64,000 bases of DNA from a virus. The notes under the pieces were generated by a model that had not been told where the DNA came from, did not search any database, and saw only the letters and a program-made list of their open reading frames with translations. Position 1 is the first letter of the stretch, and every line of letters begins with the position of its first letter. Positions 29,081 through 56,792 of the stretch are shown here, piece by piece. Made by a program: the position numbers and the translations under genes. The DNA lies in the IMG/VR virus record IMGVR_UViG_3300042453_005424, positions 1 through 64,000 of that record, one strand, 5' to 3'.

Positions 29081-29656
29081 TTATTTAGAAGCTGCGGCAG
29101 CTCCTTGAAACTCTTTCGGTATAGCTTCAGGATGTCCTGTAAACCAAGCTGTTTGGCGGTCCATTTCTTCTCGGCTAATTTTTGATGGATCACTGTATAT
29201 GCTCGCGGCGGCGGCCTGAGCTGGGGATAATTTCCCTTGAGCCACATTTTCTTTTAGTTCGATAAGTCTACTAATAAAATTTTCTTTTCTTATTTGTTTA
29301 AGTGCGGATTCGCGGCCCATACCTTTACCTAGACGGTAACCTGTATAACCTGGGACAAACATAAATTTTGCTCCTCTTCCTAATAACGAGGGGCGGTCTT
29401 CGATTACTCTGGTCAACAACTTCTTTTTGAACTCTTCTGGTGTGTCCGATACATCACGGAAATGGTTGGTTTTAGCTTTTTCCCTCAGATACCCTGCCCC
29501 CATACCCAAAGCAGAAGGAAGGCCGTAGTAGCCCATTTCCATAGCAGGCCCAAAAAAAGCTTTTTTTGTTAAGGAATCTATCTGAGCCTCCGGTAAACCG
29601 GACTCAGAAGCACGCTTTAAAAATCCTTCTATAAATTTTTGCTGCAACGTGCGCAT
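29081..29656 (-). CDS. Putative head-packaged membrane protein (FxxGF helix, KKA site, Gly-rich hydrophobic segment)
   Basis: KFIEGFLKRASESGL...TKKA followed by GYYGLPSALGMGAGYL. Confidence 0.6.
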   Translation of the reverse strand: MRTLQQKFIEGFLKRASESGLPEAQIDSLTKKAFFGPAMEMGYYGLPSALGMGAGYLREKAKTNHFRDVSDTPEEFKKKLLTRVIEDRPSLLGRGAKFMFVPGYTGYRLGKGMGRESALKQIRKENFISRLIELKENVAQGKLSPAQAAAASIYSDPSKISREEMDRQTAWFTGHPEAIPKEFQGAAAASK

Positions 29657-29662
29657 AAAAAA

Positions 29663-30055
29663 TTATTCGTCTAAAAGACTATAGTTTTGGTCATAACCGA
29701 ATGCTCGGCGCATCACAGGGTCTTCTGATGCTCCGGCCGATTTAACTGTGGCTACTTTACCCATATAAGCAACATCTGATGCAGTACAAACACGCTCAAC
29801 AATTTTAGCTAGATAACCGAGGTCTTCCTTGGCTTTTTTAAGGAACACTTCCTTCTCATCGCTATCAGTTATAAAATCAGAATTATATAGAGCATCAGCT
29901 GCTTTTTTCAAGGCAGCTTCGGTTTCTTGGTCTTTTTTAACTTTTTCAGCAGCTTCCTTTACTTGATAATCATGCAACTGATTTTTAAGCTCCTTGATTT
30001 CAGCTAAAGCCGATTTTACGAATTCTTCTATTTTGTTAGTTGCTTCGTTTGTCAT
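29663..30055 (-). CDS. Scaffold-like helical head protein
   Basis: 130 aa, coiled coil with six K-x-A sites. Confidence 0.6.
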   Translation of the reverse strand: MTNEATNKIEEFVKSALAEIKELKNQLHDYQVKEAAEKVKKDQETEAALKKAADALYNSDFITDSDEKEVFLKKAKEDLGYLAKIVERVCTASDVAYMGKVATVKSAGASEDPVMRRAFGYDQNYSLLDE

Positions 30056-30185
30056 TGTTTGCTTTATCTAGGTTTATCAAGCTGTCTATGTATTCTAAAA
30101 CTTTTTGCTTGTCTTGATCGTCTAAATAATTAAGCGCGTTTATCGCTTGCTGCTCGACAGATATTTCTGGCGATGTATCAGGCAT
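30036..30185 (-). CDS. Small hypothetical protein (49 aa, below the track cutoff)
   Basis: MPDTSPEISVEQQAINALNYLDDQDKQKVLEYIDSLINLDKANNDKRSN fills the gap between the scaffold-like genes. Confidence 0.55.
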   Translation of the reverse strand: MPDTSPEISVEQQAINALNYLDDQDKQKVLEYIDSLINLDKANNDKRSN

Positions 30186-30198
30186 TATAAGCTGTTAG

Positions 30199-31122
30199 TT
30201 ATTTAGTAGGTTGACCACCGACAATTTCTGTCTTGAGCTTTTCTAAAACCATGTCAGCAACAACAGAAGCTAATTTTGCCTGAGCTTCAACTTGAGCTTG
30301 CTCCTGCTTAGCTTCGGCCTGCTTAGTCTGCTCTTTTTGATAAAAACTCTCTAATTCAGCAACTTTTGCTTTAAGGGTTTTATTTTCTTCAATTGCTTGC
30401 TCGAGAGCAGCTTCTTTTAAAATAGAATCAAAGTATTCAGCTCCTGCTTCTTCTGCTTTCTTTTCGGTTAAGCTATCCTCGGATTGAAGATTCTCGGCTG
30501 CTTGGGCGATCATCAGATCAAAATCACGGCGACCGGCCTCTTTTGTAAATTCTGCTTCATTAGGAGCGGAATATTCGCTAGCGCTCTTTAAGAGAGCTGC
30601 GCAAAATTGGCGGCCTAGTTCGTAGGAAGCAACTTTAGCAGCCAGCTCTTCAACTTCAGCCTTTTTAGCCTCAGCTAAAGGAGCGCTATCGTCCGTGCTG
30701 GGCTTTTGCTCTCCTGTGGTTTGGGGTGTGTTATTTTCAGGTTTTACAGCATTTTTATCAACAGTTTCTTTGTCATCACTAATACTTTCCGATTTAACAT
30801 CTCCAGGAGTTCCCTTAACTGTATCCTGTGCTTCGCCCTGCTTGCGAATAATGTCAAGAATTTCAGCTCCCAAGGTCTCTGCTGTTTTAGGCCCGCAACA
30901 AGGTGTAGCAGAGTCGTCAGAAGGTTTCTGATGATAGCCTTGCGCTACATTTTCAGGACCTACGGAATTTTTATTAGTCGTTTCATGCTCATCGCTAATA
31001 CTGTTAGATTTCACATCTTCCCCCGGAACACCAGAAATATTTTTCTGTGCGTCGGCTGCTTGCTTTTTGACCATAGTGTGAAGTTGATTAAGGACTTCTG
31101 CGTGTTTTGTTAATTTTGCCAT
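30199..31122 (-). CDS. Capsid scaffold/core protein
   Basis: 307 aa, acidic and helical, with about 12 K-x-A sites, an internal ~55-aa duplication and a CAGGAGA SD. Confidence 0.7.
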   Translation of the reverse strand: MAKLTKHAEVLNQLHTMVKKQAADAQKNISGVPGEDVKSNSISDEHETTNKNSVGPENVAQGYHQKPSDDSATPCCGPKTAETLGAEILDIIRKQGEAQDTVKGTPGDVKSESISDDKETVDKNAVKPENNTPQTTGEQKPSTDDSAPLAEAKKAEVEELAAKVASYELGRQFCAALLKSASEYSAPNEAEFTKEAGRRDFDLMIAQAAENLQSEDSLTEKKAEEAGAEYFDSILKEAALEQAIEENKTLKAKVAELESFYQKEQTKQAEAKQEQAQVEAQAKLASVVADMVLEKLKTEIVGGQPTK

Positions 31123-31149
31123 GATTTTTGTTCTCCTGATTGTTTATAG

Positions 31150-31178
31150 ATTTTATTTTAATTTAATGAAATTGTAAA
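31150..31178 (-). promoter_or_regulatory. Sigma70-type promoter
   Basis: TTTACA-17 nt-TAAAAT. Confidence 0.5.
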
Positions 31179-31181
31179 TAT

Positions 31182-32195
31182 TTATTTCTCTTCTTGTTTC
31201 TCTTTGTTATCTTCGGTTTTTCCTTTAGCTAAGTTATAAGCAACTGTTCCACCTGCAGCAGCTCCGCCTGCCGCAGCGGCACCTAACCCAATAGCTTTCT
31301 TATTACGTCTAAGAAAAGCAGCTGTATCTTTACCTTTGGTGAAAGATTCTCCGCCGCGCACCTTATCTGCTTTGTTTCCTTTTACAAACCCTTCAGCAAA
31401 ATCTTTTGCTTTATTGTACTTAGAACTAACTGTCTTACCGGCAGAGCTCGTTGCGGCTCCAAAACGCCCGGCTAATGTAGGCGCCGGAAGAGATAATGCT
31501 GAAGATTTTACAAACTCAAGAATTTCAGCATCTGAAAACCCATATTCACGAGCGCGCTCTAAAACACCTTCGTAATAAGCAGCTGTTTTTTCATCAATTT
31601 CAGAAGTCGCGTCTTTGTCTCCGCGCAATTTCTTTAAATCGCTCGAATCAATTTTACCGTTATTGTTTAAATCTAATTTGTGCTGGTCTCCTTTTAATTC
31701 AGCTGCTTGTTTTACAAAATTAACAGTTTCGTTCAACGCCTGCTCATACAAATCAACCGCTTGTTTAAAAGAGGCTCCGTGCTCCACAGCTCTCTCTAAA
31801 AATCCTTCTATATACCCAGCAGATTTAACAAAATCCAACTCGGCGCTTTTAACAGCTTCTTCTTGAGGTTGTGTTCCGAGATGCGTAGCGATTGCTTGAG
31901 CTAATTCTCCAATCTCACCATCTTCCGAAGCTGATTGGCCTCCTTGGATATCTCCAGCCAACTCAGAGGCTAACTGCTCTAATTCTTCCGGAGATAAAGA
32001 CGCAAGAAGCTGCTCCACTTCATCACCTCCCTGCGCTCCTCCTTCAACTCCAATATTTTCTTCTAACGCCTCTTGGGGCAGCTCTGGAGATGCTGCTGCT
32101 GGGGAAGGGGCAACCGGTGGAATATTCAGTTCTTCCGCAGCAAGCTTGTTTTTTAAAAATTCTGCGGCTAATTCAGTGGCTGATTTATTTGTCAT
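31182..32195 (-). CDS. Prohead core/cargo protein with EF-hand-like loop and C-terminal glycine-zipper segment
   Basis: Two YxEG[FV]LERAxExG helices, GDQHKLDLNNNGKIDSSDLKKLR, AIGLGAAAAGGAAAGGTVAY and many K-x-A sites. Confidence 0.65.
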   Translation of the reverse strand: MTNKSATELAAEFLKNKLAAEELNIPPVAPSPAAASPELPQEALEENIGVEGGAQGGDEVEQLLASLSPEELEQLASELAGDIQGGQSASEDGEIGELAQAIATHLGTQPQEEAVKSAELDFVKSAGYIEGFLERAVEHGASFKQAVDLYEQALNETVNFVKQAAELKGDQHKLDLNNNGKIDSSDLKKLRGDKDATSEIDEKTAAYYEGVLERAREYGFSDAEILEFVKSSALSLPAPTLAGRFGAATSSAGKTVSSKYNKAKDFAEGFVKGNKADKVRGGESFTKGKDTAAFLRRNKKAIGLGAAAAGGAAAGGTVAYNLAKGKTEDNKEKQEEK

Positions 32196-32256: not shown

Positions 32257-33693
32257 TTAAAAATTCTGAATTATAGCGTTCAAAAGCAAGTCATCATCTA
32301 ATTTATTTTGGTCCTCAAGGTATCTCAAAGCTGCCAATTTATAAGCTGTATATTGGTCAGCTAATTCACGAACTGCGGCTTCTTTCGATATCTCCGAGTT
32401 TTCTTTTTTACCTGTTAATTTATTCTGAGGTTTGCCTACAATCGTAATTCGCAAAATTCTTTGGTGTGCAGGAGCTCCAAAAAGAGAATGCCCGTCAAAC
32501 AAACCATTCACCAATTTTTTAATCTCTTTTGGCATTATATCTGAAAAAGAGGGCTCATATTTTTCATTGTGTAAAATATCCTCATTCAAATCAGAAAAAG
32601 CAAAAGGAAGCCTAGTTTTTACTTTGCTGAATAAATCTTCGGTGTTTTTAATCTTTTTGGTTCCGAATAAATATTTTATAAAGTCTTCGAGAGAAAAAAT
32701 GACACCTTTGTCTGCTAGCGCTCTTAGTAATTTAGAAGGTTCGAATTTACGCAGCTCTTCAAGAGTATCCTCAGAAATATTGTCGCTACTTTTAATTTTA
32801 GCTGCTTCATCTCGAATAAATTTATCTCGGCTGTTTTTAACCCCGCCTTTTATAACTGTCTCAACACGCTTTTCTATCTCTGCCAGCTTGGCTACCAAAT
32901 TTCTTTTCTCACTGGCATATTTTGACACATAAAGAGTATTGTCTTCCTCAGGAACAACAAACCCTGGGTATAGATTAAAATAGTCCGCAGCTTTTTTAAT
33001 ATAAGTTCCGTCAGAAGCAACTTTTTTAAGAGACATACCTATCCTATCAGCAGGTCTGCCGACTATAGACAATTCGAACCATCTAGGATTTATATTATCC
33101 ATACTGCACATTTCGCCGCGTTTGTTGATTTCGCCTAATTTAGATGGAATATGCTCGCAACGAGATCTGTCGTCTTTAGCTTCGTGGTCGCACCAAGTAC
33201 ATTTGTCATAAGCCACTTTAGCCGCCATCGAAACATTGATTTGTTTACCTTCTGACAACTTTTGAATTTCTTCAGCACATTTATCATTATCCATTCCGAT
33301 AATTAATTCAATACGGCGCATATTTTTATTATATGCGGCAGCTTTAATATTTCCGTATTTCGGGTCTTCAGGTTTATTTTTATGGTGCCTGTTTAAAGCA
33401 CGCCCGTCGTACTTACCTTCTTTATTTTTTTTGCCTGAATATAAGAATGTTTTATAATTGTTTACACATTCGGCTTCTTTAAAAATATCGCCGTTTCTAT
33501 TAGCGCCAGTTCCTTCGTACGCACCAAGCGCAATAACTAATACATCAGTTTGTCCGGCTGTTTTCTCAGCACAAAGCTCATTGTGCGCAGCTCCTGTCTT
33601 AGCCAATGTATTTTTATTAGCCAGTATTTGTACAGGTTCTACATCCCAATTCCAATCTTCAGTAGAACTAAATTTAATTAACCCCGAGTACAT
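32257..33693 (-). CDS. Prohead maturation protease (HK97/assemblin-like fold) with a Zn-binding insert
   Basis: GANRNGDIF, RHHKN (candidate catalytic His), NVSMAAKV (candidate catalytic Ser), CTWC...CEH and FELSIVGRPAD; upstream of the scaffold and MCP genes. Confidence 0.8.
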   Translation of the reverse strand: MYSGLIKFSSTEDWNWDVEPVQILANKNTLAKTGAAHNELCAEKTAGQTDVLVIALGAYEGTGANRNGDIFKEAECVNNYKTFLYSGKKNKEGKYDGRALNRHHKNKPEDPKYGNIKAAAYNKNMRRIELIIGMDNDKCAEEIQKLSEGKQINVSMAAKVAYDKCTWCDHEAKDDRSRCEHIPSKLGEINKRGEMCSMDNINPRWFELSIVGRPADRIGMSLKKVASDGTYIKKAADYFNLYPGFVVPEEDNTLYVSKYASEKRNLVAKLAEIEKRVETVIKGGVKNSRDKFIRDEAAKIKSSDNISEDTLEELRKFEPSKLLRALADKGVIFSLEDFIKYLFGTKKIKNTEDLFSKVKTRLPFAFSDLNEDILHNEKYEPSFSDIMPKEIKKLVNGLFDGHSLFGAPAHQRILRITIVGKPQNKLTGKKENSEISKEAAVRELADQYTAYKLAALRYLEDQNKLDDDLLLNAIIQNF

Positions 33694-33696: not shown

Positions 33697-35343
33697 TTAA
33701 TTAATTCTTTCAGCGGCATCGAAATCCCCTCTTGATTTGAGGAGTGTTTTTTTCCATTCTTTAATTTGCTCGTCTTCAAAAGCTTTATTTTGAATAGCTC
33801 GCACCAAGGCATATAATCCAGAGCCGCCTAAGGCTATCCCTGCTCCGGCCGCCAAAGGGAGACCAGCCCTTCTCAATGTTCTTCTCAGCCCTGAAGATTG
33901 AAAGTTCGGATTCTTTATATCTCTTAAAGTTGTGTTAGCAAACATATGCTCCGCAGGATTTGCCGAAGAAAAATCTTTTCCGCCATTGATTTCTTTTATA
34001 ATGTCTGATACCAGCCCTTCATTAAAATATTTGTCTGCTCCGGTGATATTTCCTTTTTCTAAAAGATCGCCAATTGCTTGATTTTTCCCAGGAACGAGAC
34101 TATTGACTATTCCACGCAACTTGTTCGCTACAGGGCTAATATATTTCTTCTGTAAAAATTTCTGTACAGCCGGATTGTTTTTCAGCTCGTGCAAATCTTC
34201 ACCAATATAAGATTTAAAAGGTTTTCCAGAATCTCTTTTCCTCTTATAACTTTCCATGAAATTTGCATAATCTTTGAGCTTTGCCTGTGCAGGAGATTGT
34301 CTGGCTTGGCTAATCAAGTTTTTTTGTGCCTGTTCTATTTCAGATATTCTAGAAGCATATTGCTCTTGTAATGTTTTTTTAGGCTTTTGGTCTCCGGTAG
34401 CCATGAGTTGCTCAAGCTTTCGATTGAAGTCTTCGCTAATAATACTTTTTTGCATCTCTAATGCGCGGTATTGCGGAGCATAACCATGAGGCTCTAAAGT
34501 ACGCATCAGATCATTGACTTTAGTTTTATAATCGGTCATCGCCGTTCCATAACCTATATCAAGATCTTTTAATTTACTTCTGTAGTAACTATCCAAATTT
34601 TCAAGAGCCCCGCCCTGCATATCTGTAGGATCTATATTCAAATCTTTTATTATTTGCTCAATAGGTTCGCCTTTTTTAGCCCTGCTCAAAGCATTAAGTT
34701 GCTCTTTCTGCGTTGCCGAATATTGCTTTCTAAAATTATCGATAGCTTCAGAACGCTGCGCTTCGAGCATATTGAATTCTCCAGGATATTTCCGCATATC
34801 CGCTACTGGGCGGCGCTCAAGGTCATCTAATCTACGAAAACGCAATTCTGGAGAAACTTTTAAATCGTCACTCAGCTCGCCAAAAGTTCTAGCTATATCT
34901 TCGCGTAAAGGACCTCTTGAAGAATCTAGTAAGTTTGTGGGATTGCTTGGATCTAAAGGGTTATTAGCGCGAGCCATTTGCGCTTTTTCTGTAGCCATCA
35001 TGTTCTGCATCTGGCGTAAATAATTAGTCGCTGCTCCGCCGGCTGCTACCCCAAGACCTATGGTGGGTGACTGCTTTAAAATATCGCTAAGTACAGATTG
35101 CGTTGGGTGCTCATCATAAAAAGTTTTTCCTTTATTGCTCTTAGTACCTGTCAAGTACTCGAGACCTACCACACCTTTTCTAACATGCTCTCGTAAAGCT
35201 TTAATTCGCTCTGCGTCATAACCTTTTAATTTACCGACATTAGAAGAAACTATTGGAGCTATCGCATGGTATAGGTCAGTGTCAAGCCCTGCGGCAGGAT
35301 TCGCTAAGTCTTCTTGAAAAGCTGTTTGTGATGGTGTTGGCAT
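33697..35343 (-). CDS. Putative head-packaged protein with two glycine-zipper hydrophobic segments
   Basis: IGLGVAAGGAA and GLPLAAGAGIALGGSGLYALV flank a long helical region. Confidence 0.55.
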   Translation of the reverse strand: MPTPSQTAFQEDLANPAAGLDTDLYHAIAPIVSSNVGKLKGYDAERIKALREHVRKGVVGLEYLTGTKSNKGKTFYDEHPTQSVLSDILKQSPTIGLGVAAGGAATNYLRQMQNMMATEKAQMARANNPLDPSNPTNLLDSSRGPLREDIARTFGELSDDLKVSPELRFRRLDDLERRPVADMRKYPGEFNMLEAQRSEAIDNFRKQYSATQKEQLNALSRAKKGEPIEQIIKDLNIDPTDMQGGALENLDSYYRSKLKDLDIGYGTAMTDYKTKVNDLMRTLEPHGYAPQYRALEMQKSIISEDFNRKLEQLMATGDQKPKKTLQEQYASRISEIEQAQKNLISQARQSPAQAKLKDYANFMESYKRKRDSGKPFKSYIGEDLHELKNNPAVQKFLQKKYISPVANKLRGIVNSLVPGKNQAIGDLLEKGNITGADKYFNEGLVSDIIKEINGGKDFSSANPAEHMFANTTLRDIKNPNFQSSGLRRTLRRAGLPLAAGAGIALGGSGLYALVRAIQNKAFEDEQIKEWKKTLLKSRGDFDAAERIN

Positions 35344-35344: not shown

Positions 35345-36280
35345 TTATGAATGTAATAAATATTGGTCAGCTGTGTTCATATCAGAAACATCTGAAATAT
35401 TGTTTGTATTTTGTAGCTTTTTCAGCGCCTGTACAGCTTCATATTTATTTTTTGCTGCGGGCATAGAAGATAATATGCCGGATAGTAATGCTGAAGTTCC
35501 TCCTAAAACTGCAGGAAGTGCAGAACGTGTTTTGTAAGATAAATTTAAAAATGGAGCTTTCCGTAGTAAATGCCCTCCAGCTAAACCTGCCGCCCCTCCT
35601 ATCCCAGCACCTAAAAGCCCTCCCTTTAGTCCGGCAATTCCTCCTGATATTACGGGGATGTCGTCGACCGCAGCATCTCGAGCTTTCAACAAATTCTCAT
35701 TATATGCTCTTCGCTGTTCCCCAGTAAAATCATCGTAAACCGGAGAAACCCCGCGGCTAGCTAACTCTTTTTTAATATTAGCAAAATCAGCGGATGTCAT
35801 ATCGCCGGGATTCTGAAAAGCTTGTTTTTTGAATGAAGAAATTTTACTTACTCCGGCTGTGCTATCTTCAAAATAGGGCTGCATCTCCATCTTATTAGGT
35901 TTATACCCGAATGCGCGACCACCGGCGTCAAGTATAGGATTTCCTAAAACTGAAGCAAAGCCCATAACAGGCATATCTACAGCAGCTGCCGAGGCTATGG
36001 GACGATTTAAAAAATTAGGTAGCCCGCGACCAATTCTCCCCATAACCCCAGATCTCTCCGCTAACCTCGGAGCCGATTTCAGTAGTTGTTTTCTAGCTAT
36101 CGAGGAGGCTACTAGAGGAAGCATAAACTTCCCTGCCTCTGCAATTAATGGGGCTACAAAAGCGAATTTATTTAACTCCTCATAGTTACTTTTATTACGT
36201 GAGTTTAATAAAATAGAATAAATTGATTGCGAGGCTGTTTTTTTATTAATAGCTTTGGATAATTTTTCACATAATTCCAT
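35345..36280 (-). CDS. Putative head-packaged glycine-zipper membrane protein
   Basis: KKTA, NKFA and KKQA sites; GGIAGLKGGLLGAGIGGAAGLAGG. Confidence 0.6.
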   Translation of the reverse strand: MELCEKLSKAINKKTASQSIYSILLNSRNKSNYEELNKFAFVAPLIAEAGKFMLPLVASSIARKQLLKSAPRLAERSGVMGRIGRGLPNFLNRPIASAAAVDMPVMGFASVLGNPILDAGGRAFGYKPNKMEMQPYFEDSTAGVSKISSFKKQAFQNPGDMTSADFANIKKELASRGVSPVYDDFTGEQRRAYNENLLKARDAAVDDIPVISGGIAGLKGGLLGAGIGGAAGLAGGHLLRKAPFLNLSYKTRSALPAVLGGTSALLSGILSSMPAAKNKYEAVQALKKLQNTNNISDVSDMNTADQYLLHS

Positions 36281-45885: not shown

Positions 45886-48876
45886 TCAAACTTCAACGCG
45901 GTCGCCAACATCTAATTTACCGGCTAAAAAATCTCTTACAACTTCTTGCGCTGAGCTATATTTAATAGGTTTATTTTTTTTATCTTCAAAACTTGCAGCG
46001 AATAAACCTGTAGCGGCCTCGTTCGAAGGAGTGAATATCGGGCTGAATGTTCTGTGGTAGATTAAATTTTTCTCAGGCAATAGCTTTTCTTTGATTTCAT
46101 CTTTAGCTTCTTCTGTCGCCGGAACTTGCACATTCAACTGATCTCCATCACAATCAGCGCCGAAACCTTTAAACACCAAAGGATTTAATTTAACTGAAAA
46201 ATCTTTAGGATCAATATTTGTCTTTAGATAGAAACCTTGAAAATTATATTTAGATAATTGCGGATCTCGAGTAACAATTCCTGGGCGGTCCTCCATCTCT
46301 AGCTGGAGTGCATTAAGCGCCAACGGATGTTTTGTATCTAAGTATTCTCTAGCTTTAGTTGCAGGTATTCCTTGTTTAACCAATCTTCGAATTATAAAAG
46401 GAGCATATATACTCCAAGCAACATTTTGAGGAATGCTCGCTTGATTCAGATCTAACTTCGAATCAGGCAATAACACAGCTCTTCCTACCAAATCAATTGG
46501 TTTGTTAACAACTTTTGCCTGAAACATGGATTCTTTGGCTGACCCGCCGTGAACGCCTAACGCAGTAGCTAGTAAACCTTTATACCCTTTCTCTTTACTT
46601 TTTTGAGATATTGGGTCACCTAAACCATATATAGCTTGAGCACCTTCGTAAATTTTCTGTTTTGCCGCTCTAATGTGTTCAGGAGAAATATCCTCTATTT
46701 TTTCAGCATCTTTCAAAGATTTATTGACAAGCATCAAATCTTTATATAGCTCATTAATATCTGCCGAAAGAACTTGATCTCCCTGTATAATAATAGGGCG
46801 ATACTGTGCAGGAATAATTGGGATTTTAGATAACAACATATCACTAGGCTTGAGCCCGTGTGATTTAAGCATAGTTAAAAAGCTTAAACTTTTGACTGCC
46901 TCGTCTCTTCCGGATTTACGTTTGGTAGCAATAAATTGTTTAAGCTCATCAATTTTATTCTCTACATCTATAGCTTCTAATTTCTTTTCAAGCTCACCAC
47001 TAGCGATAGCCGCTGTATAATTCGCCTTGGTCATTTTTAACATTTTACGTAAATGTTCTTCAGCCATAGGATTAGGTATTTTATGACTCAACTCAATGTG
47101 ATTGAAATTATCTCCGTACAACCCAACATATGTAGGGTCAAAAAGGCCGTGCTCCTCATGCTGCAATTCATCTTTTTTTAACTTGTACGTGAGAGGATTT
47201 TTAATTTCCCCTGATGATAATGAAACAATATCTTTATCGGTTTGAGGAAAAATATGAAATTTTGAACCTTCCTGCTGAACATTAATTCCTGCTCCACGAA
47301 GATGCCCAAGAAACTTATTAAATATAAATGGTACTTTTGGAGGGGGTGGAGGATACCCTAATTTGAGGGCAGTCCAATAATCATCGTTTTTAGTAGAGCG
47401 CACCGTAGCGATATCCCTAAGCACTGCTTTCGCGTCATTCGATAAAGCAACCGTCGTAGCCAAGTTACCTATTCGTTTAGCTTTTTCTGTTGTTCCGGCC
47501 TTTGAAGGCTGCATATTCACATCATATGTAGTTGCAGCAGATCTAGCAGAAATTTTGTCCTCAGCTATATGGTGTAACCTGTTAAAATAAAGAGGTCCTG
47601 TTAGCACTTCGACCTGTTTGCCTGAAATTGGATCATAAAGCTTTTCAGTGTCTTTAATTCCTGCTTTGTCCAACGCGTCTATTACTTTTTGCACCGCAGA
47701 ACCTTCAGTAAATCCGGTCATATTGAGAGCTTTGCCTTTTTTCTGTGCTAATTTACCTAGCCCGATTGTATTCACCAACCCAGGAGCAACGCGAGAAGTG
47801 ATGCTCATGGAATTAAGGATAACATCCACAGGTTTGCCGTCTTCGTCTTGTGGCATTTGCGTATCAGCAGCGATGTGTACCACTCCTTTAGCTCCGAACG
47901 GCATATTCAATTTATCCCCAAACCCCATAGGGCGCTTTGTTTTAACAGTTACAGTTATAAGTTTACCTGTGTTAACTGAGTCAACCACTGTTCCTTCGTG
48001 CTCATATTCCCATGTTGTAGAAATATCATTAAAAGCATTTCTAATCACTTTAGATAACTTTCCAAGTTGTATATCCAATGATTTAAGTGTTTTAGGCTGG
48101 AAAGCCAGGATCACGGGATCTCCAGGTCGCAAAACTGTTCCTTTTTTTACTACTCCCTGAGAATCTATGGTATCTAATTGATCGTTATAGAACTTGTTAG
48201 GAAACAATGAAATATGCTGATTTTTATCTGTGGAAACTCCTCTAGCCACCTCTAAACGAATAGGGATGAGTTGCTCTCCTTCGAGTTTTTTTGCTGCAGA
48301 TTCAGATATAACCAAAGCATCCTCAAAATTAAGAGAGCGATAAGGCATAACCGCGGTTTTCAAATTCATACCTAGGGCTAAGTTGCCTTTATCATCTGAA
48401 TAATTCGAGGTAGCCAATAATTGCCCTTTTTCTACCTTGTCTCCTATTGAAACCGTAGGTTTGTGGTCTATATAACTTTCTCTTCCGACGATATAATTTG
48501 AATATCTGTCGTGCGTATGCTCTTTACCTGAAGAGTCTTTGATAACAATGGTATCATCATTAATTTTTGCAACTTTACCTGCAACTGACGATCTGATGCT
48601 TACTAAATTTCCAAAAAGCTGGTTAAAACTCTGTTTTCCTCCTTTAGGAGCTGACTGAACTAACGGAGCTTCTCGATTAGTTAACGTCATAGCTTGCAAC
48701 GAAGACTTATCCCCGATCAAAACGCGAGCCCCAGAAACAGAGCTGATTCCTGGAATTAAATTGGTTACAGGACTAAAAAACTCGGAAGGATCTGGTATAG
48801 TATATTTGGCTTTTTCAGATGAGGAAACTTTTTTTAATTTCCCTGCCACCAGCATATATTTATAATTTTTACCCAT
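45886..48876 (-). CDS. rpoBC: Phage multi-subunit RNA polymerase, fused beta C-terminal / beta' N-terminal catalytic subunit
   Basis: Beta motifs: GNLALGMN...NFEDALVIS, GDK...GAKGVV, MP.DEDGKPVDVILN...SR, LHHIAEDKISARS. Then beta' motifs: SSGEIKNP, HIEL, IPIIPAQYRP, GRAV and catalytic GADCDGDQ. Confidence 0.95.
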   Translation of the reverse strand: MGKNYKYMLVAGKLKKVSSSEKAKYTIPDPSEFFSPVTNLIPGISSVSGARVLIGDKSSLQAMTLTNREAPLVQSAPKGGKQSFNQLFGNLVSIRSSVAGKVAKINDDTIVIKDSSGKEHTHDRYSNYIVGRESYIDHKPTVSIGDKVEKGQLLATSNYSDDKGNLALGMNLKTAVMPYRSLNFEDALVISESAAKKLEGEQLIPIRLEVARGVSTDKNQHISLFPNKFYNDQLDTIDSQGVVKKGTVLRPGDPVILAFQPKTLKSLDIQLGKLSKVIRNAFNDISTTWEYEHEGTVVDSVNTGKLITVTVKTKRPMGFGDKLNMPFGAKGVVHIAADTQMPQDEDGKPVDVILNSMSITSRVAPGLVNTIGLGKLAQKKGKALNMTGFTEGSAVQKVIDALDKAGIKDTEKLYDPISGKQVEVLTGPLYFNRLHHIAEDKISARSAATTYDVNMQPSKAGTTEKAKRIGNLATTVALSNDAKAVLRDIATVRSTKNDDYWTALKLGYPPPPPKVPFIFNKFLGHLRGAGINVQQEGSKFHIFPQTDKDIVSLSSGEIKNPLTYKLKKDELQHEEHGLFDPTYVGLYGDNFNHIELSHKIPNPMAEEHLRKMLKMTKANYTAAIASGELEKKLEAIDVENKIDELKQFIATKRKSGRDEAVKSLSFLTMLKSHGLKPSDMLLSKIPIIPAQYRPIIIQGDQVLSADINELYKDLMLVNKSLKDAEKIEDISPEHIRAAKQKIYEGAQAIYGLGDPISQKSKEKGYKGLLATALGVHGGSAKESMFQAKVVNKPIDLVGRAVLLPDSKLDLNQASIPQNVAWSIYAPFIIRRLVKQGIPATKAREYLDTKHPLALNALQLEMEDRPGIVTRDPQLSKYNFQGFYLKTNIDPKDFSVKLNPLVFKGFGADCDGDQLNVQVPATEEAKDEIKEKLLPEKNLIYHRTFSPIFTPSNEAATGLFAASFEDKKNKPIKYSSAQEVVRDFLAGKLDVGDRVEV

Positions 48877-49515: not shown

Positions 49516-50688
49516 ATGTCATTGGCCATCGAATCAGCAAAACTAACGAGAATAGAAGAAATATTAGTCACCCGAGAAACTTCTCCAGTTGAAAATCCAC
49601 CTCCGAAACTGACTCAATATAAAAACTCGGTATGGGAAGGAGAGAGCGCGCCTACCGAATACACAATCGCTAAGTTTATCGAAACAGAGCAATCCAGAAC
49701 TCATTCAGACGAATTAGTCTCTTCCAAGGCTTCAACAGTATCTAGCAAGCCAGTTAAAGGCATACTCGATATAAACTGGGCGAATCCGAGGGATTGGGTT
49801 AGAAACTGGAAAGTTATTCCTCTCGACGAAAGACTGCTTATAAAAACATTGTTTACCTCACCACTAGCCAAAAACGGAAATCGCTACGGGCTAAAGCGGT
49901 TTAATCTCGGAAGTCATCTAATGCAGTGCATAGGAGTCGATATGACCAACATTATCGGAAACGGTATTTGTGCTGTGAAATCGAATCTAATAAACGAGCT
50001 GGGATACTATAGCGATTACTGCGCGAACAACCGGGCCATGGATCCTAAAACCTGCCGAAGGGCTTTTGCTAAATTCATGAAAGACAACAATCCTCAAAAA
50101 CTGTTCGAATCTGGGTATGTAGCCTTTCACGCTGTTGTAAACTCCGGAGAAACCTTGAAACACTTGGATAACGATATCGAAAGCTATAAGAAGAAATTAT
50201 GGAGCTTTTACGGAAAAAACTGTAAAGTTTTCCGAAAGCTGAAAAAGAAAAAACTGGTTTCCTATATGATTTATGTTCACGAAATGTCTACTCGAAATCT
50301 TTTGAGCAAAGAGTTGAACCCGCATACGCACGTTATGTTCTTTTTCAAAGACCCTGGGCTCGGAGGTTCAGAGCTTGAATGGATGAGCCGTGAGATTGTC
50401 CGAGAGTTCAACAATATCTCTGAAGAAGGAATTATGAGTCCTAGCACCGAAGTAGTCGGGGACTCGGGCGAAAGAGCTGTTCGAGTAGCAAAAAAGTGGA
50501 ACTCGAACACGAAGAAATCCGTAGGCTACTATTTCAGGGTATGTTCCACAGTAGAAAACTACCTGAAAGAAATAACCCCGGAAAACATACGAGAATTAAA
50601 TATAGCCACTCGCGAAAATTGGTGGGTAGTTCGTCAACTTATGAGTGGAAAGTCCCAGCGGAGATTCGGTTATACAAGAATACGTTAG
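49516..50688 (+). CDS. HUH endonuclease, rolling-circle Rep-like (Rep_1/IS91-type motif order)
   Basis: YC.NNR.MDP..C, motif I-like FHAVVN, motif II HEMST...NPHTHVMF, motif III-like VGYYFR and terminal GKSQRRFGY; ATG 49516. Confidence 0.6.
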   Translation: MSLAIESAKLTRIEEILVTRETSPVENPPPKLTQYKNSVWEGESAPTEYTIAKFIETEQSRTHSDELVSSKASTVSSKPVKGILDINWANPRDWVRNWKVIPLDERLLIKTLFTSPLAKNGNRYGLKRFNLGSHLMQCIGVDMTNIIGNGICAVKSNLINELGYYSDYCANNRAMDPKTCRRAFAKFMKDNNPQKLFESGYVAFHAVVNSGETLKHLDNDIESYKKKLWSFYGKNCKVFRKLKKKKLVSYMIYVHEMSTRNLLSKELNPHTHVMFFFKDPGLGGSELEWMSREIVREFNNISEEGIMSPSTEVVGDSGERAVRVAKKWNSNTKKSVGYYFRVCSTVENYLKEITPENIRELNIATRENWWVVRQLMSGKSQRRFGYTRIR

Positions 50689-50758
50689 AAACAAGCGCGA
50701 ACCAGTTTTGTTAAATAAAAGTTTTTACCTAGGCTTTCGAGCACGCACATCTACTTTG

Positions 50759-50787
50759 TTGCAAACCACAAAAGATTTCGATACAAT
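50759..50787 (+). promoter_or_regulatory. Sigma70-type promoter for the plus-strand cargo operon
   Basis: TTGCAA-17 nt-TACAAT. Confidence 0.65.
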
Positions 50788-50827
50788 TATAAAAACCGGA
50801 GCATACCCAAATTTTAACCAACAAACC

Positions 50828-52810
50828 ATGCACATTGATTCAACACACGCTCACTCGCCGGAAAACGCCGAACTGAACAACACTATGGAAAAAGCGTCTC
50901 AAGAAAAAAAGGCGGTTACCTTAATAGAAGCCGCCATCGCGCCATTCTTAACCGGAGCTGTCGGAGCAGGAATTGGGGCTTTAGCCAACAAGGAGGATCG
51001 ATCCGCTGGGGCACGGCGAGGAGCGTTAGTCGGAGCCTCGCTGCCTCTAGGAGCACTCGGCGGTATAGTAGCTTCTGGAAATACCGGCGCTTTGGCAGGA
51101 CCGTTAGCCGGGGCAGCTTTGGCTGGAGGAATAACACATCATCTCACAGGAAAGAATAAAACGGATGAGCGCCCGAAAGCTTCAGAGCTATCCGAAGAAG
51201 AAATCCTAGCTCAGCTCAACAGCACCGATCTGAGCAATTCGGAATTCGAACGAGGATTCAAAGAAGCTTGCGTAGAACTAGGTGCGGACCGAGAGTTCGC
51301 CGAAGGCTTTATCGCTCAAACAACAAAAGAAGCTGAAATCGCTGAAGGGCAGTATTTAAACCATGTTCAAAACGAGCTTTCGAAGCTCGCTGAAGAATTC
51401 GGTGAAAACGCCAGCTTTTCCATAAGCGAAATCAACGAGTTTACTAAATCCATGAGCTTGTTTAAAGAGGCTGCGGAGAAAGAAGCAAGAATGTTCTGGA
51501 AAGGCCTCGAAGAAGAACTTCAAAAGCAAGGATACGACAGAGATTTTGTGGATGGAATGAAGTATGAGCTTACCTCCACGGAGTTAAATTCGATTATAGA
51601 GAATAACTTTGAAAAAAGTGCTAGCATGGGTTCTTTTTTAAGAATGGCTCTGAGTCCAACACTTTGGAAACGTCCAGGAGCGCAGCTTAAAGGAATAGGC
51701 GCCGGAATCACAAGTGGTGCGAAAGGAGTTCAGAAGTTCGTGAGTGATTTGGCAAAAGCTCCGGGCGGAGCCGTAACCAACCAAGCAGGCGAGGCTGTTA
51801 TGCACAGTTCCGCGCCAAAACATATTCCGGGCTCGAGAACCAAAGCTTACGCAGATGCTTACGAAGCAGCTCTCGGAGCAAAGCCGCTTGCCCCGAAAGG
51901 CCAAGGAATAATAGACTCAGCAAGAGACTCGGCTATTTCACAAGGAAGCACTGCACTTAGAAGAACAGGTGACGATGCTTTTCAGCAGGAAATGTATAAC
52001 CTGAGCCGTGAAGCCAGAAATAGCGGCCCTGGGGGCGCTGCGGCCCGGGATGCTCTCGATAGGTTAGGAAAAGGAGACTTCGGAGGGATTGCCGGGCGAA
52101 TGGGTATGGACCCGACAAAAATGAACCAGTTCGCAGGAATGAGCGCAGATGATATACGTAGAGCTAACATTCCGTCCGAGGATGTGCTCGGAGCGGCTCA
52201 GCGATACGGGGCCGATGCGACTGCGTCCGGGTTTAACATGAGTGGAATACCTATGCCTAAAATGAACCCGAACGTGTTTCACGGAGGAGCCCCTAATCGT
52301 TGGTTTAGATTTTCTCCAGGAAAAGCTATGGGTTACGGGCTTACCGGAGCGCTAGGCGGGTCTATGCTCGGACCTCTAGGAACTGTGGCAGGAGGGCTGG
52401 GCGGAGCAGCTCTCGGAGGCTTGGGTGTGGGGGGAGCAGCCCTCGGAACCGGAGCCGCGGCAGCAGCAGGAACCTACGGGGCTGGAAAAGTCCTAGGGCT
52501 CTGGGGGAAAGACAAAGCTACCGATTTGAGCGGCGCCCCAACGGACCGGAATAGAGCTATTCCGATGCTTAAAAACAATTGGACCGGAGGCGTGGGTGGT
52601 CTCATAGTTGCGAGTTTGCTCGCGAATCAATTAGGGCTTCAAGGACCTATGGCATGGATTGTTCCTCTCCTGGGCGGAGTGCTTGGGTACAACTATTTTC
52701 CGCAGCTTATGAACAAATGGAAAGACCCTTACGGCTACGGAGCAAACGCAGTCTCGGGCGGAGCAGCTTTCCAGAACGCGGCCTCGCCGATAACTCCTAG
52801 GCAACCATGA
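50828..52810 (+). CDS. Large putative head-packaged glycine-zipper membrane protein
   Basis: Four FxxG[FLM] helices, EKKA/TKEA/EKSA sites, and several Gly-zippers including GYGLTGALGGSMLGPLGTVAGGLGGAALGGLGVGGAALG. Start moved downstream of the promoter (50828, or 50885). Confidence 0.65.
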   Translation: MHIDSTHAHSPENAELNNTMEKASQEKKAVTLIEAAIAPFLTGAVGAGIGALANKEDRSAGARRGALVGASLPLGALGGIVASGNTGALAGPLAGAALAGGITHHLTGKNKTDERPKASELSEEEILAQLNSTDLSNSEFERGFKEACVELGADREFAEGFIAQTTKEAEIAEGQYLNHVQNELSKLAEEFGENASFSISEINEFTKSMSLFKEAAEKEARMFWKGLEEELQKQGYDRDFVDGMKYELTSTELNSIIENNFEKSASMGSFLRMALSPTLWKRPGAQLKGIGAGITSGAKGVQKFVSDLAKAPGGAVTNQAGEAVMHSSAPKHIPGSRTKAYADAYEAALGAKPLAPKGQGIIDSARDSAISQGSTALRRTGDDAFQQEMYNLSREARNSGPGGAAARDALDRLGKGDFGGIAGRMGMDPTKMNQFAGMSADDIRRANIPSEDVLGAAQRYGADATASGFNMSGIPMPKMNPNVFHGGAPNRWFRFSPGKAMGYGLTGALGGSMLGPLGTVAGGLGGAALGGLGVGGAALGTGAAAAAGTYGAGKVLGLWGKDKATDLSGAPTDRNRAIPMLKNNWTGGVGGLIVASLLANQLGLQGPMAWIVPLLGGVLGYNYFPQLMNKWKDPYGYGANAVSGGAAFQNAASPITPRQP

Positions 52811-53394: not shown

Positions 53395-53787
53395 ATGAAC
53401 AAAACAGCTTTTCCAGAGTTAAATACTTCTCCTTTTAGTATCGGAGGAAGATCTCCATACGGGCGCCCTCTTATGGGACCTGACATGATTAGCGATCCGG
53501 TTAAAGTTATGCAGCTCGTAAGTCAAGACAAAGGGATATCCCGCGGGCAAAAACAATCAGTTATTACTATGCTTAATTCTCCGGAATTCGTGGACCATAT
53601 ACTGGTAGGTGCTGCCGGAGCAGCGTTAGGGAATGCTATAGCCAAATATTCAAATATACCTCAACCGGCTAGAACTTTGTTGAGCTTGGCGGGCTTCGGA
53701 ATAGGTAATATAATATACAACACATTACAAAACAGAGAATTTATTTCTTATGACCAAGAAACAGCCAAAGCAAAAATAAAATTATAA
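53395..53787 (+). CDS. Putative head-packaged two-TM protein
   Basis: Begins MNKTA; ILVGAAGAALG and LLSLAGFGIG segments. Confidence 0.55.
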   Translation: MNKTAFPELNTSPFSIGGRSPYGRPLMGPDMISDPVKVMQLVSQDKGISRGQKQSVITMLNSPEFVDHILVGAAGAALGNAIAKYSNIPQPARTLLSLAGFGIGNIIYNTLQNREFISYDQETAKAKIKL

Positions 53788-53791
53788 AATT

Positions 53792-54148
53792 ATGGAATTA
53801 ACAGAATATTCATCAGCAATTAAAAACGAGCTAGCTTTGGAGTTAGCTAAAAATGGCCACACGCTCGAAGATTTCGAAAACGGTCTAGCTTCCTTGAACA
53901 CAGGCGAAGGTGTTTTAAAAGTTGCTACAATCGAGGCCGGACTACTTCCGGGAGTTTTGAGCGGTGTTCAACAAGCTCCGGGACTCATATTCAAAACATT
54001 TGCCGCTGGTGGAGCTTTAGGAGGTTTAGCTGCGGACGAAATGGACAGCTCTGTAGACGAATTGAATAAATCGCTTGACCGAGAGCGTGAAAAGATTAAA
54101 TTAGTCAAAAGAATCACTGAAAACTTAAAGAGAGAGCATGGGTTATAA
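53792..54148 (+). CDS. Putative head-packaged small membrane protein
   Basis: LKVA site, FAAGGALGGLAA and a C-terminal coiled coil. Confidence 0.55.
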   Translation: MELTEYSSAIKNELALELAKNGHTLEDFENGLASLNTGEGVLKVATIEAGLLPGVLSGVQQAPGLIFKTFAAGGALGGLAADEMDSSVDELNKSLDREREKIKLVKRITENLKREHGL

Positions 54149-54533
54149 TCAAGACTACACAGCAAAACAGTCCGAAGCCACCGAGCACTTTGATTTCGGG
54201 AGTTCGTCAGGCGACCCGCTTAATTCCGTAAGCAGAAAACGAAACATCCGAAACGAAGTGACTAACAAGGGAGGATTCGACCCTGAGGTAATCATCGATG
54301 CGTTCGAAAAATCTAGAGGAATTCGCTCCCGGCAAAAGAACGAGTTAGAAAATTATAAATTTAAAAACATTATATTAGACCCTGAGAAACAAAAGGATCA
54401 AGATATGCTTAATGAGTTGATGAACAATAAGAAATATCTTATTACTTTATGGAAAGACACGTGGACGCAGCAGGGAAGTTTTCGAGTATTTATTATATAC
54501 GGCGCGAAAGAAGACGAATCAGCTAAAACGTAA
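54138..54533 (+). CDS. Hypothetical protein
   Basis: 131-aa ORF overlapping the upstream stop. Confidence 0.55.
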   Translation: MGYNQDYTAKQSEATEHFDFGSSSGDPLNSVSRKRNIRNEVTNKGGFDPEVIIDAFEKSRGIRSRQKNELENYKFKNIILDPEKQKDQDMLNELMNNKKYLITLWKDTWTQQGSFRVFIIYGAKEDESAKT

Positions 54534-54627
54534 CAAAAATCTCGGGCGAAGAATCATTTCGAGCCGGACTGCGTAGAATTTGATTTACTTATAAACACCT
54601 ATAATTGTATACTGTAGATGAATACTT

Positions 54628-55809
54628 ATGAACGAACAGATCCGGAATTTATTAAAAAAATCGCGTTGTTGGGAAGGTTATAAGCCTGTTCCAGGTAAAA
54701 AGCCTTATACCAAAGATTCTTGTGCGCCGGTGGAAAAGAAGGACCCGGAGAAAGCAGGTAGCACCAACATTCCACTCTCACCTGAAGAGAGCTATCTGGC
54801 TTCGCAGTTAATAGGAAAAAGTCTTTTTAGCGCTATCCAATTAGCTAAAGAAAAAGAAAGACAACAGAACATTTTAAGCCAAGAGCTGATAGGTGCAGAC
54901 GGGGGAGATATATTACGTATTCCTATACCTAAGAAACTTCTGCCTAATCCTACAGGGCAGAAACAAGCCTCTCATACTCCTTCGCCAGAAGCTATGTCAG
55001 CTATGCAGGATTTAATAGCTTATAATAATTATGTTCGTAAACACGGTAATCCTGATGCTTATGATGAAAAAATAAGACGAGGATTAGATCCGTTACTTAA
55101 TAGGGTTTCGATGTCGCAGGGTAACCTGCACCGTTTAGGTGATGCCGGGATTATGTCTATTTTTCCTTTTGGAAAAGCACATAAACAAAGAAAACAATAC
55201 GACCAAGACATAGACTGGATCAATAGCGAGTTGAAGAAATCCGCAAACGACGATTATTCTGATGCGCTTCACACGAACCACGAACCTGGTGTTTTAGCCC
55301 GAGCGCTGAAGTTAAATACACACCCTGTTAAAAAAATAATGGGAATGCAGAGCGGATTTCGCGACGCTAAAAAAGAATTTTATTTCCAAGAAAAAGCGCA
55401 AATTGCCCAAGAGCTGATGAATGCTCAAAAAGAATACATTGAGCTTCTGGAAAGAATCAAAACCGGTGAAGAAAAGCTCGGTAAAGCCTCGAGTACTCCA
55501 TGTGTTGACGCTTTTTGCAACGGAATAGCCCATAGCGCGCTTTTTGGAGAGGAGGCTGCGGCAAAAACCGCTGGTGCTGAAAACGTGGATATCTCCGACG
55601 GATCAATAAACCGTCTGCTGAAAGATACTTTTAGCGCAGTGAAAAAACCTTTTCAACCTGCGGTAGATACTGCGGCAAGCGGGTTACTTGCCACTTCGGC
55701 TGGAACAGCATATTTAACATATTTATTGCGTAAAAGAATGCGTGAAGAACCTGAAAAATATATGCAGGAAAAATTGCCTACCAGAGTGGAGCTGCAGCCT
55801 TATGAGTAA
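54628..55809 (+). CDS. Putative head-packaged protein with an N-terminal CWEGY module and a C-terminal TM segment
   Basis: KKSRCWEGYKPVPGKKPYTKDSC; QKQA, KKSA and AKTA sites; AFCNGI helix; GLLATSAGTAYLTYLL. Confidence 0.6.
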   Translation: MNEQIRNLLKKSRCWEGYKPVPGKKPYTKDSCAPVEKKDPEKAGSTNIPLSPEESYLASQLIGKSLFSAIQLAKEKERQQNILSQELIGADGGDILRIPIPKKLLPNPTGQKQASHTPSPEAMSAMQDLIAYNNYVRKHGNPDAYDEKIRRGLDPLLNRVSMSQGNLHRLGDAGIMSIFPFGKAHKQRKQYDQDIDWINSELKKSANDDYSDALHTNHEPGVLARALKLNTHPVKKIMGMQSGFRDAKKEFYFQEKAQIAQELMNAQKEYIELLERIKTGEEKLGKASSTPCVDAFCNGIAHSALFGEEAAAKTAGAENVDISDGSINRLLKDTFSAVKKPFQPAVDTAASGLLATSAGTAYLTYLLRKRMREEPEKYMQEKLPTRVELQPYE

Positions 55810-56161
55810 CCTCAAAGCAGCTTTTAACGCGGGGTTTTTAAAACGTGCCGAGGCTCGAGGTTTTCGAGAAGATCAGGCAGCCATGCTTCTAGGCAAAACA
55901 GCAGGAAACGGTGCATTGATAGGACGATTAATGAGTACAGCAAAAAACCTCCACAATGTTTGGCCAGCCATGTCTAAAACAAGCCCTGCGGCATACGATA
56001 AAATGTATAATACGTATAATACACTCAAAGGGCTCATGAGCCAGGGAATAGCTCCCAAAACAAACCCTAGCAGAAGAACAATACAGGCTGATTATACTAG
56101 GCTGTTGAAACACCGAGTGAATAATTTGAATCCCCAGGCGAGCAAACTTCAATCAAAGTAA
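55802..56161 (+). CDS. Putative head-packaged basic protein
   Basis: From ATG 55802: MSNLKAAFNAGFLKRAEARGF...GKTA. Confidence 0.6.
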   Translation: MSNLKAAFNAGFLKRAEARGFREDQAAMLLGKTAGNGALIGRLMSTAKNLHNVWPAMSKTSPAAYDKMYNTYNTLKGLMSQGIAPKTNPSRRTIQADYTRLLKHRVNNLNPQASKLQSK

Positions 56162-56168
56162 CTGCACA

Positions 56169-56792
56169 ATGAATTTAGACTGGACTGCATGCAATAAAGG
56201 AATAGCTGATGAACTAGAGAAACACGCCCGCTGGGGAGCTATTGGTAACGCAGCTAAGCAAGTTTTTAATTTAGGCAGAAAAGCTTTTTTACCTGCAGCC
56301 GCCGCTGGTGGTGCTTTTACGTTAGGAAAAGGTTTGTATAACAAATATAGGGATATCACAGGAACTATAGACGGTGTAGGAAATGCTATAAACAAGCTGG
56401 CTCCGGTAGGCCTTATGGCTATGCTGGCATCAGGTATGCGCAAAAGCGCACCCCAACTTCCCACACCTGCGCCTAGAGGAGCCTTTGATGCTAAGTCTTT
56501 ATTGGGTGTTAACCCTGCCGGGGTGTCTACACTAACCTCACCTAAAGTAGGTCCTATGAATATAAAAATTGCGAATCCTCTTTATGACCCTTTGCTTTGG
56601 GCTGCGAGAAATCGCGTAGCTAACCATGTTTTAAACGAAGTAACAAAGACAAGTCCGTCAGGGGCTGGTGAAAGAGCAAAACTAACCGAAGAAAATCCTA
56701 AAAAAATTGAATTAACCTCTAAATATCCTGAGCTTGCAAAGTTATTAGAAGACGAAGAAAACAAAGCTTATTTAAACAAATTGCTAGCATAA
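56169..56792 (+). CDS. Putative head-packaged membrane protein
   Basis: ACNKGIADELEKHA, then FLPAAAAGGAFTLG and VGLMAMLASG. Confidence 0.6.
   Translation: MNLDWTACNKGIADELEKHARWGAIGNAAKQVFNLGRKAFLPAAAAGGAFTLGKGLYNKYRDITGTIDGVGNAINKLAPVGLMAMLASGMRKSAPQLPTPAPRGAFDAKSLLGVNPAGVSTLTSPKVGPMNIKIANPLYDPLLWAARNRVANHVLNEVTKTSPSGAGERAKLTEENPKKIELTSKYPELAKLLEDEENKAYLNKLLA

Follow-up and report, generated by a model that had tools for sequence, protein, structure and literature searches.

What is the function of about ten proteins with glycine-zipper segments, encoded around the head and RNA polymerase genes of a single virus? The genes lie between positions 29081 and 56792 of a 64-kb stretch of DNA, hereafter the window, which is the start of a 74,454-bp virus contig (IMG/VR record IMGVR_UViG_3300042453_005424). 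A first-pass annotation proposed that these proteins are carried in the head, ejected at infection and inserted into the host inner membrane, where they would form a DNA-entry channel or a compartment for early transcription. Our analysis partly supports this interpretation: the genes sit among those for the head and for an RNA polymerase (RNAP) that is probably a virion protein, comparable proteins were detected in particles of a cultured relative, Salmonella phage Arash, and such a set is unusual by the measure of phage phiKZ. We put the probability that these are packaged ejection proteins with membrane-active zippers at roughly 45%.

The same genes occur in the same order in nine IMG/VR contigs of 87–204 kb, with core proteins that are 60–80% identical. 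Because the relatives reach 204 kb, and one of them, at 204,454 bp, has direct terminal repeats, the window is a piece of a phage of ~200 kb. The window sequence turns up in public metagenome runs of freshwater or lake origin. Among cultured phages, Arash and three Vibrio phages of ~187 kb are the sole relatives, with D69 among them. Arash has a genome of 180.8 kb and myovirus morphology (PMC10585845); the core proteins of Arash and D69 are only 26–32% identical to those of the window. Six open reading frames (ORFs, named here by their lowest coordinate), 21677, 26580, 18291, 6072, 7890 and 9517, are homologous to structural proteins of Arash and D69. From these homologies, and from the morphology of Arash, we infer that the phage has a contractile tail. 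PHROGs and Pfam recognize almost nothing in the window, the exceptions being a split multisubunit RNAP and a head maturation protease; the tail-region ORFs and small neighbouring ORFs have no match in either database.

The segments are conserved glycine zippers

All ten ORFs listed by the first-pass annotation are present, and each encodes at least one uncharged Gly/Ala-rich run of 13–54 amino acids (aa). We defined a segment as a run without D, E, K, R, H, N or Q that is rich in Gly and Ala. Seven of the ORFs are strong cases (31182, 33697, 35345, 39227, 50645/50828, 54628 and 56169) and three are weak (29081, 53395 and 53792). Under a strict criterion there are 16 segments in 9 of the 82 ORFs of the contig; composition-preserving shuffles gave a mean of 2.0 and a maximum of 7 in 500, so the enrichment is 8-fold.

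The segments are also periodic. Each of three residue classes (Gly, small and bulky) repeats at i+4 and i+8, with z scores of +2.1 to +2.3 in the window, and the excess at lags 4 and 8 reaches z +5.5 to +5.6 in 119 segments of the relatives. The segments are therefore helical glycine zippers rather than generic Gly-rich linkers; they have the small residue at every fourth position, in an uncharged helical segment, that marks a glycine-zipper helix. They hold their position in orthologues that are just 30–48% identical and variable in length, and relatives gain or lose extra zipper segments. In the family of ORF 39227 (alignment A2, 15 sequences), the positions that never vary in the C-terminal half are zipper glycines, G238, G242, G303 and G307, and G246 is nearly invariant. 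None of the ten window proteins has a Gly-zipper or other Pfam match at an expect value (E) of 1 or below. Gly-zipper_YMGG (PF13441) is matched by 6 of the 15 members of the 39227 family (best E 2.9e-7), Bacteriocin_IIc by two of the members and Gly-zipper_OmpA (PF13436) by one; these matches may be compositional.

Of the 233 ORFs in the complete relative G003, about ten encode period-4 zipper proteins, and these are grouped at three places: the head module, a divergent RNAP-linked operon, and a region at 51–62 kb that is missing from the contig of the window. The observation itself is thus confirmed, and the segments are conserved, periodic and common to the cultured relatives. The segment criterion also catches collagen-like G-x-T repeats in fibre proteins of G003, which we set aside by eye as period-3. 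Large proteins with such G-A-T or G-x-T repeats, presumably fibres, are encoded at 64955-75824 and 103028-104827 of G003 (loci L031 and L018).

Zipper proteins are probably packaged in the virion

Are the zipper proteins part of the particle? We applied the same segment criterion to the whole Arash genome and found nine ORFs with segments: gp4, gp21, gp95, gp97 (six segments), gp191, gp213, gp221, gp224 and gp241. All nine are on the particle list obtained by LC-MS (liquid chromatography coupled to mass spectrometry), or are annotated as structural from it (PMC10585845), against a background of 116 detected proteins out of ~251 (hypergeometric p ~8e-4). Several of them are abundant in virions, as shown by 1952 spectra for gp4 and 1060 for gp97 (PMC10585845). 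We counted gp241 through its GenBank label, “structural protein”; it is off the printed table unless the numbering of the paper is shifted by +1 after Gp239, as appears to be the case. Detection by mass spectrometry (MS) is also easier for long proteins.

The layout around the protease gene is shared. This gene is flanked by gp221 and gp224 in Arash, by 0269 and 0272 in D69, and by 33697 and 31182 in the window. Since it is kept across genomes whose capsid proteins are only ~28% identical, the zipper-protease-zipper layout is conserved. The RNAP subunits gp206 and gp216 are among the most abundant proteins of the Arash virion (PMC10585845), so the RNAP of the window phage is probably packaged, and by analogy the phage probably carries its own polymerase in the virion. 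On the comparison with Arash, we consider it probable that the zipper proteins are packaged too. The first-pass annotation assigned the whole set to the head module. This stands for the five ORFs on the minus strand; the gene map needs correction, as the capsid protein is encoded at 27444-28400 and not by an ORF of 729 aa.

What might packaged zipper proteins do? We propose that the phage is an Arash-like giant myovirus of ~200 kb whose zipper proteins are internal head proteins (“cargo” or ejection proteins), expressed late along with the head genes and taken into the capsid with the multisubunit RNAP of the phage. What is conserved in these proteins is a set of one to six glycine-zipper helices, frequently located close to the C-terminus with a charged tail behind. 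Because the helices are only moderately hydrophobic, the proteins could stay soluble or self-associated in the head. Once ejected through the contractile tail, the helices could pack together by small-residue faces and insert into the cytoplasmic membrane independently of the Sec machinery, and in the membrane they might form or anchor a conduit for entry of DNA and polymerase. Ejection, membrane insertion and the making of a DNA channel or early vesicle are steps that we purely infer. We give ejection slightly better than an even chance, and we hold membrane activity of the zippers only tentatively, at somewhat below even odds. An early-vesicle role is speculation. It is quite unlikely that the scheme holds in its widest form, in which the whole lineage (the freshwater clade, Arash and D69-like phages) packages about ten zipper proteins with a virion RNAP, and these insert collectively into the membrane to make an entry pore or a lipid compartment.

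Membrane propensity and alternative explanations

The basic flanks described by the first-pass annotation are real but mild, with K/R at 38–50% of flanking positions versus 24–25% for D/E, and the preference holds on either side of the segments. The absence of signal peptides also holds: none of the N-termini read is signal-peptide-like (the start of 50828 being uncertain). The same annotation saw K-x-A sites before the segments. In the window, 7 of 16 segment starts have a [KR]x[AS] nearby (background 0.17), and in the relatives 15 of 110 do (0.14, background 0.15); because the frequency in relatives equals background, K-x-A is not a conserved feature. A scan for conserved sites of the T4/phiKZ type, [AGSLIVT]-x-E, gave no consistent site near the segments.

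Several points weigh against packaged, membrane-active ejection proteins. We took a conventional transmembrane helix to be one with a mean Kyte-Doolittle hydropathy (KD) of at least 1.6 in a 19-residue window, or with a predicted free energy of insertion (dG) of 0 or less. On the Kyte-Doolittle and Hessa scales the segments for the most part do not qualify as such helices: the best 19-residue KD means of the zipper ORFs are 0.57–1.70, with only two of the ten (35345 and 50645) reaching 1.6, and the summed Hessa dG values of the segments are all positive, from +3.5 to +9.8. The first-pass annotation had named segments not predicted to be transmembrane as the outcome that would speak against it, and our result goes partway there. 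Three of the ten ORFs are weak cases. The zipper proteins of Arash have no detectable sequence homology to those of the window, and the sequences establish no apparent cleavage motif for zipper proteins. The AlphaFold2 (AF2) model of the 39227 family, which is predicted to be all-helical with the zipper segments as helix, is of low confidence, at a predicted local distance difference test score (pLDDT) of 52.9. The Arash proteome is permissive, since its 116 proteins include ribonucleotide reductase and kinases, and detection in it is weak proof of packaging. Finally, the phage of the window is uncultivated and comes from freshwater metagenomes, and the evidence for packaging is indirect, the best of it being that from Arash.

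The same contig encodes true membrane proteins, 58937, 70740 and 73225, with KD values of 2.54–2.65 and dG values of -0.3 to -2.5. Because these use ordinary hydrophobic helices, the zippers are a class apart. If they enter the membrane at all, they would do so as self-associating helices that insert post-translationally.

Low hydropathy and positive summed dG values also suit a different explanation, namely that these are packaged internal head proteins whose zippers serve protein-protein packing only, in a core or bolus with RNAP or in DNA organization. Some segments, such as the 13-aa run in 53792, are too short for a bilayer, and small-xxx-small faces are general motifs of helix-helix packing. 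The virion abundance of Arash gp4 and gp97 fits structural packing, as does the precedent of the internal head proteins of phiKZ and Goslar, which are injected and whose role is still unknown. However, members of the 39227 family match the membrane-associated families Gly-zipper_YMGG, Gly-zipper_OmpA and Bacteriocin_IIc, the C-terminal helices with charged tails and basic flanks look like membrane anchors, and strict exclusion of charge over 20–54 residues exceeds what helix packing needs. We consider packing as the sole function somewhat unlikely.

The tail-anchor-like layout of 31182, 33697 and 54628, together with genes that adjoin the protease gene, raises the possibility that, in the cell that is producing phage, zippers fasten head-core or cargo proteins to the cytoplasmic membrane for prohead assembly, the tether being removed or extracted at maturation. 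T4 and phiKZ proheads assemble in association with the membrane, which fits a tether. Nonetheless, a stable anchor is unlikely given the weak hydropathy, and ten different tethers seem excessive. Removal of the segments is opposed by the 100% peptide coverage of gp221 and gp224 in Arash virions, although coverage in that table looks generous. We regard tethering as improbable.

Lastly, it is highly improbable that the zipper proteins stay out of the virion and serve as membrane proteins during infection (for example in lysis, superinfection exclusion or anti-defence), encoded among head genes by chance: their moron-like rapid evolution and variable length would fit, but the genes share the orientation of the protease, scaffold-like, capsid and RNAP genes and are closely spaced with them, their positional analogues in Arash are detected by MS, and they have weak hydropathy and no signal peptides, whereas true membrane proteins of this phage have classic helices.

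The ten zipper ORFs

Five of the ORFs are on the minus strand. ORF 29081 (29081-29656; 191 aa) is the weakest of the ten. Its single weak Gly-rich run is 17 aa long (aa 41-57; maximum KD 0.57), BLAST finds few orthologues, and the N-terminus has an F-x-x-G-F-x-K-R-A-x-E-x-G module. ORF 31182 (31182-32195; 337 aa) is directly downstream of the protease gene and carries two copies of a G-F/V-L-E-R-A module. It has a C-terminal glycine zipper at aa 301-320, followed by a charged tail, and this C-terminal Gly/Ala run is present in eight orthologues of 35–47% identity. ORF 33697 (33697-35343; 548 aa), directly upstream of the protease gene, occupies the position of Arash gp221 and D69 0269 and has glycine zippers at aa 92-106 and 493-514. 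Most of its nine orthologues (38–48% identity) have a run at the matching place at both ends, with eight having the C-terminal one; the protein has no match in Pfam, PHROGs, the ESM Atlas or, by tblastn, cultured phages. ORF 35345 (35345-36280; 311 aa) has two Gly-zipper runs, aa 220-236 and aa 253-276, in addition to a hydrophobic stretch at ~aa 39-57. It evolves fast, since BLAST detected just two orthologues. ORF 39227 (39227-40183; 318 aa) has four glycine-zipper helices, at aa 99-117, 164-183, 235-256 and 295-310.

The other five are on the plus strand. ORF 50828 (50828-52810; ~660 aa) is the first gene of a rightward operon and follows an ORF of 402 aa. Position 50828 is an internal ATG in a frame that is open from 50645, and the true start is uncertain. 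The protein has six Gly-zipper runs, three N-terminal and three C-terminal, the longest of 54 aa; the C-terminal runs are kept in relatives (L017, L018 and L020). The local content of G+C rises to 0.455–0.484 at this Gly/Ala-rich gene. ORF 53395 (53395-53787; 130 aa) has a conserved helix-loop-helix made of an A-G-x-A-G-x-A stretch and an L-S-L-A-G-F-G stretch; its runs are broken by Asn or His, so that it falls outside the strict criterion for a run. ORF 53792 (53792-54148; 118 aa) has a short conserved core, G-G-A-L-G/A-G-L, at aa 69-81. This run of 13 aa is below the length that spans a bilayer, and in the relative L020 a Gly-zipper insertion of 49 aa is placed upstream of the core.

ORF 54628 (54628-55809; 393 aa) has a conserved C-terminal uncharged helix at aa 348-367 and then a basic tail, an arrangement like that of a tail anchor. 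The helix is kept in five orthologues, and relatives add one to three Gly-zipper runs at ~aa 85-210. We found these orthologues through the relatives' own contigs; a direct search with the locus gave proteins that have only a short N-terminal motif in common. This motif, Cys-Trp-x-Gly-Tyr-x-x-Val-Pro-Gly-Lys (54628-54760), recurs at the ends of unrelated large viral proteins of 212–1290 aa. ORF 56169 (56169-56792; 207 aa), directly upstream of the gene for an N-terminal fragment of RNAP beta, has Gly/Ala runs at aa 39-53 and 77-90, which align poorly yet occur in four of five orthologues.

Several proteins, many of them zipper-bearing, share a module of ~30 aa, [FY]-x-x-G-F-x-K-R-A-x-E-x-G-[FYL]-S-x-x-E-A. 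Its sites in the window are 21427-21663, 29081-29656, 31182-32195 (two copies) and 50645-52810. In G003 it occurs at 57–62 kb, where it opens a run of small proteins, and at 134–138 kb; a regular-expression search of Arash found none. The module could be a shared docking or packaging domain.

Gene map around the zipper ORFs

The major capsid protein (318 aa) is encoded at 27444-28400 on the minus strand and is 28% identical to Arash gp226 over 97% of its length (E 4e-30). A scaffold-like gene (30199-31122) lies among the head genes near the gene for the prohead (head maturation) protease, which is at 32257-33693 on the minus strand and matches phrog_18299 (E 5.9e-9) and Arash gp222 (E 4e-25). 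Further along the same strand are the gene for the conserved 729-aa protein (40204-42393), a gene for the C-terminal part of RNAP beta' (42467-44326), homologous to Arash gp216, and a gene for a fusion of the C-terminal part of beta with the N-terminal part of beta' (45886-48876), homologous to Arash gp206. The RNAP genes have Pfam RNA_pol_Rpb1/Rpb2 domains, and three small ORFs separate the two. The N-terminal fragment of RNAP beta is encoded at 57047-57712 on the plus strand and aligns to residues 36-222 of gp206 (E 7e-16). From this Arash-based map it follows that the five minus-strand zipper ORFs are bounded by the RNAP genes on one side and the capsid gene on the other, and surround the protease gene and the scaffold-like gene. 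The five on the plus strand form a divergent operon that terminates at the RNAP fragment gene.

The 729-aa protein has a mean column identity of 80% across ten relatives. Its homologue in Arash, gp218, is one of the most abundant in virions (1149 spectra), and in that genome the RNAP beta' gene and a helicase gene are followed directly downstream by the gene for gp218. The comparison with Arash rules out the 729-aa ORF as the capsid gene, as the capsid protein is the gp226 homologue; because the 729-aa ORF matches gp218, while the portal of Arash is gp204, it is neither capsid protein nor portal. The 729-aa protein has no match in Pfam or PHROGs, a profile search of Protein Data Bank (PDB) sequences with its family gave no real hit, and look-ups of this protein and of the 33697 protein in the ESM Atlas gave scores below 0.82 and no family.

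Arash RNAP gp206 (1525 aa) maps in order onto three genes of the window and contig: residues 36-222 onto 57047-57712 (plus strand), 231-469 onto 64252-64944 (minus strand) and 482-1517 onto 45886-48876 (minus strand). The “middle” of RNAP beta is thus encoded at 64252-64944, partly past the window on the contig, and on the opposite strand to 57047-57712. ORF 10426-11067 (minus strand) is homologous to Arash gp10 (E 6e-14), which is annotated as an RNA polymerase sigma factor and was detected in virions.

In one freshwater metatranscriptome, contigs of at least 99% identity cover the scaffold-like gene and also, at a depth of 73, a gene for a 160-aa protein that lies upstream of the capsid gene. 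These contigs span 28276-29222 and 30145-31579; cover elsewhere is much patchier, at few other spots, and uncovered parts carry no meaning. The cover fits high late expression, but carry-over of DNA is possible, and we take it as a hint only and do not use it as evidence of expression.

Significance

How DNA and packaged enzymes pass the inner membrane is an open question for large contractile-tailed phages. For phages of the phiKZ type, the way in which the membrane or early lipid body is shaped at injection is likewise stated as open. The lineage described here supplies a compact, conserved and recognizable set of candidate membrane-active virion proteins, and since Arash and D69-like Vibrio phages are cultured, the idea is directly testable. 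If collective insertion proves true, these would be the first phage-encoded candidates for membrane shaping at injection by a contractile-tailed phage. If the helices prove to be packing elements only, the proteins would still be a new type of internal head protein. The signature, charge-free period-4 Gly/Ala runs beside head genes, helps to find such cargo in unannotated genomes of giant phages.

Comparison with known systems

The view that so large a set is unusual for a contractile-tailed phage agrees with the comparison to phiKZ: under the same criterion there is no zipper segment in 148 ORFs over 140 kb, half of the genome, which covers gp57-gp181 and most head genes. Ordinary hydrophobic stretches do occur in a few of the phiKZ head proteins. 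In its capsid protein the phage of the window is not phiKZ-like: this protein is of a 318-aa type, in contrast to the 747-aa gp120 of phiKZ. The internal head domain PF12699 was not found in the ten proteins at Pfam E <= 1. Like the proteins described here, the internal head proteins of phiKZ and Goslar (PF12699; phiKZ gp93, gp95 and gp97, and Goslar gp58) evolve fast. They form an abundant head set, are paralogous, are packaged with the virion RNAP, are cleaved by the prohead protease and are injected with the DNA; their role is still open.

Podophage ejection proteins (T7 gp14, gp15 and gp16; P22 gp7, gp16 and gp20; N4) are internal virion proteins that, once ejected, refold to span the envelope, and those of N4 accompany a virion RNAP, as we propose for the zipper proteins. 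T7, P22 and N4 have short tails, unlike an Arash-like myovirus. The ten proteins have no match to these ejection families among PHROGs at E <= 0.01, and no relevant Pfam match. In the searchable literature we found no paper that links glycine zippers to phage virion proteins.

Outside phages, families PF13441 and PF13436, and the class II bacteriocins of PF10439, have similar small-xxx-small helices of low hydrophobicity, in proteins that reside in membranes or attack them. These are small bacterial lipoproteins or secreted peptides, whereas here the zippers are modules inside phage proteins of 118–721 aa. The type VI secretion system effectors Tse4 and Ssp6 are glycine-zipper pore-formers that are delivered by a contractile machine and insert into the inner membrane of the target. 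They differ in being toxins from a bacterial machine, and we point to a likeness only and claim no homology.

Arash gp97, gp213, gp221 and gp224, and D69 0269 and 0272, have the same kind of uncharged Gly/Ala segments as the window proteins; the four Arash proteins are labelled just as unnamed “structural proteins” (PMC10585845). The giant Salmonella myovirus SPN3US, which is related to phiKZ, has a contractile tail and packages a multisubunit RNAP, as would be the case here. Its gp47 is an inferred ejection protein that is packaged in the head and processed by the protease, its mature form opening on a predicted membrane helix, right behind the cleavage site, by which it is inferred to meet the host membrane, and the same genomic position in its relatives holds highly diverged genes (PMC5694885). 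We found no sequence similarity between gp47 and the window proteins. The protein gp47 is the closest published precedent, with the difference that it is a single protein with one classic helix (KD 2.58, dG -1.2), whereas the phage described here has about ten proteins with Gly/Ala zippers of KD 0.57–1.70.

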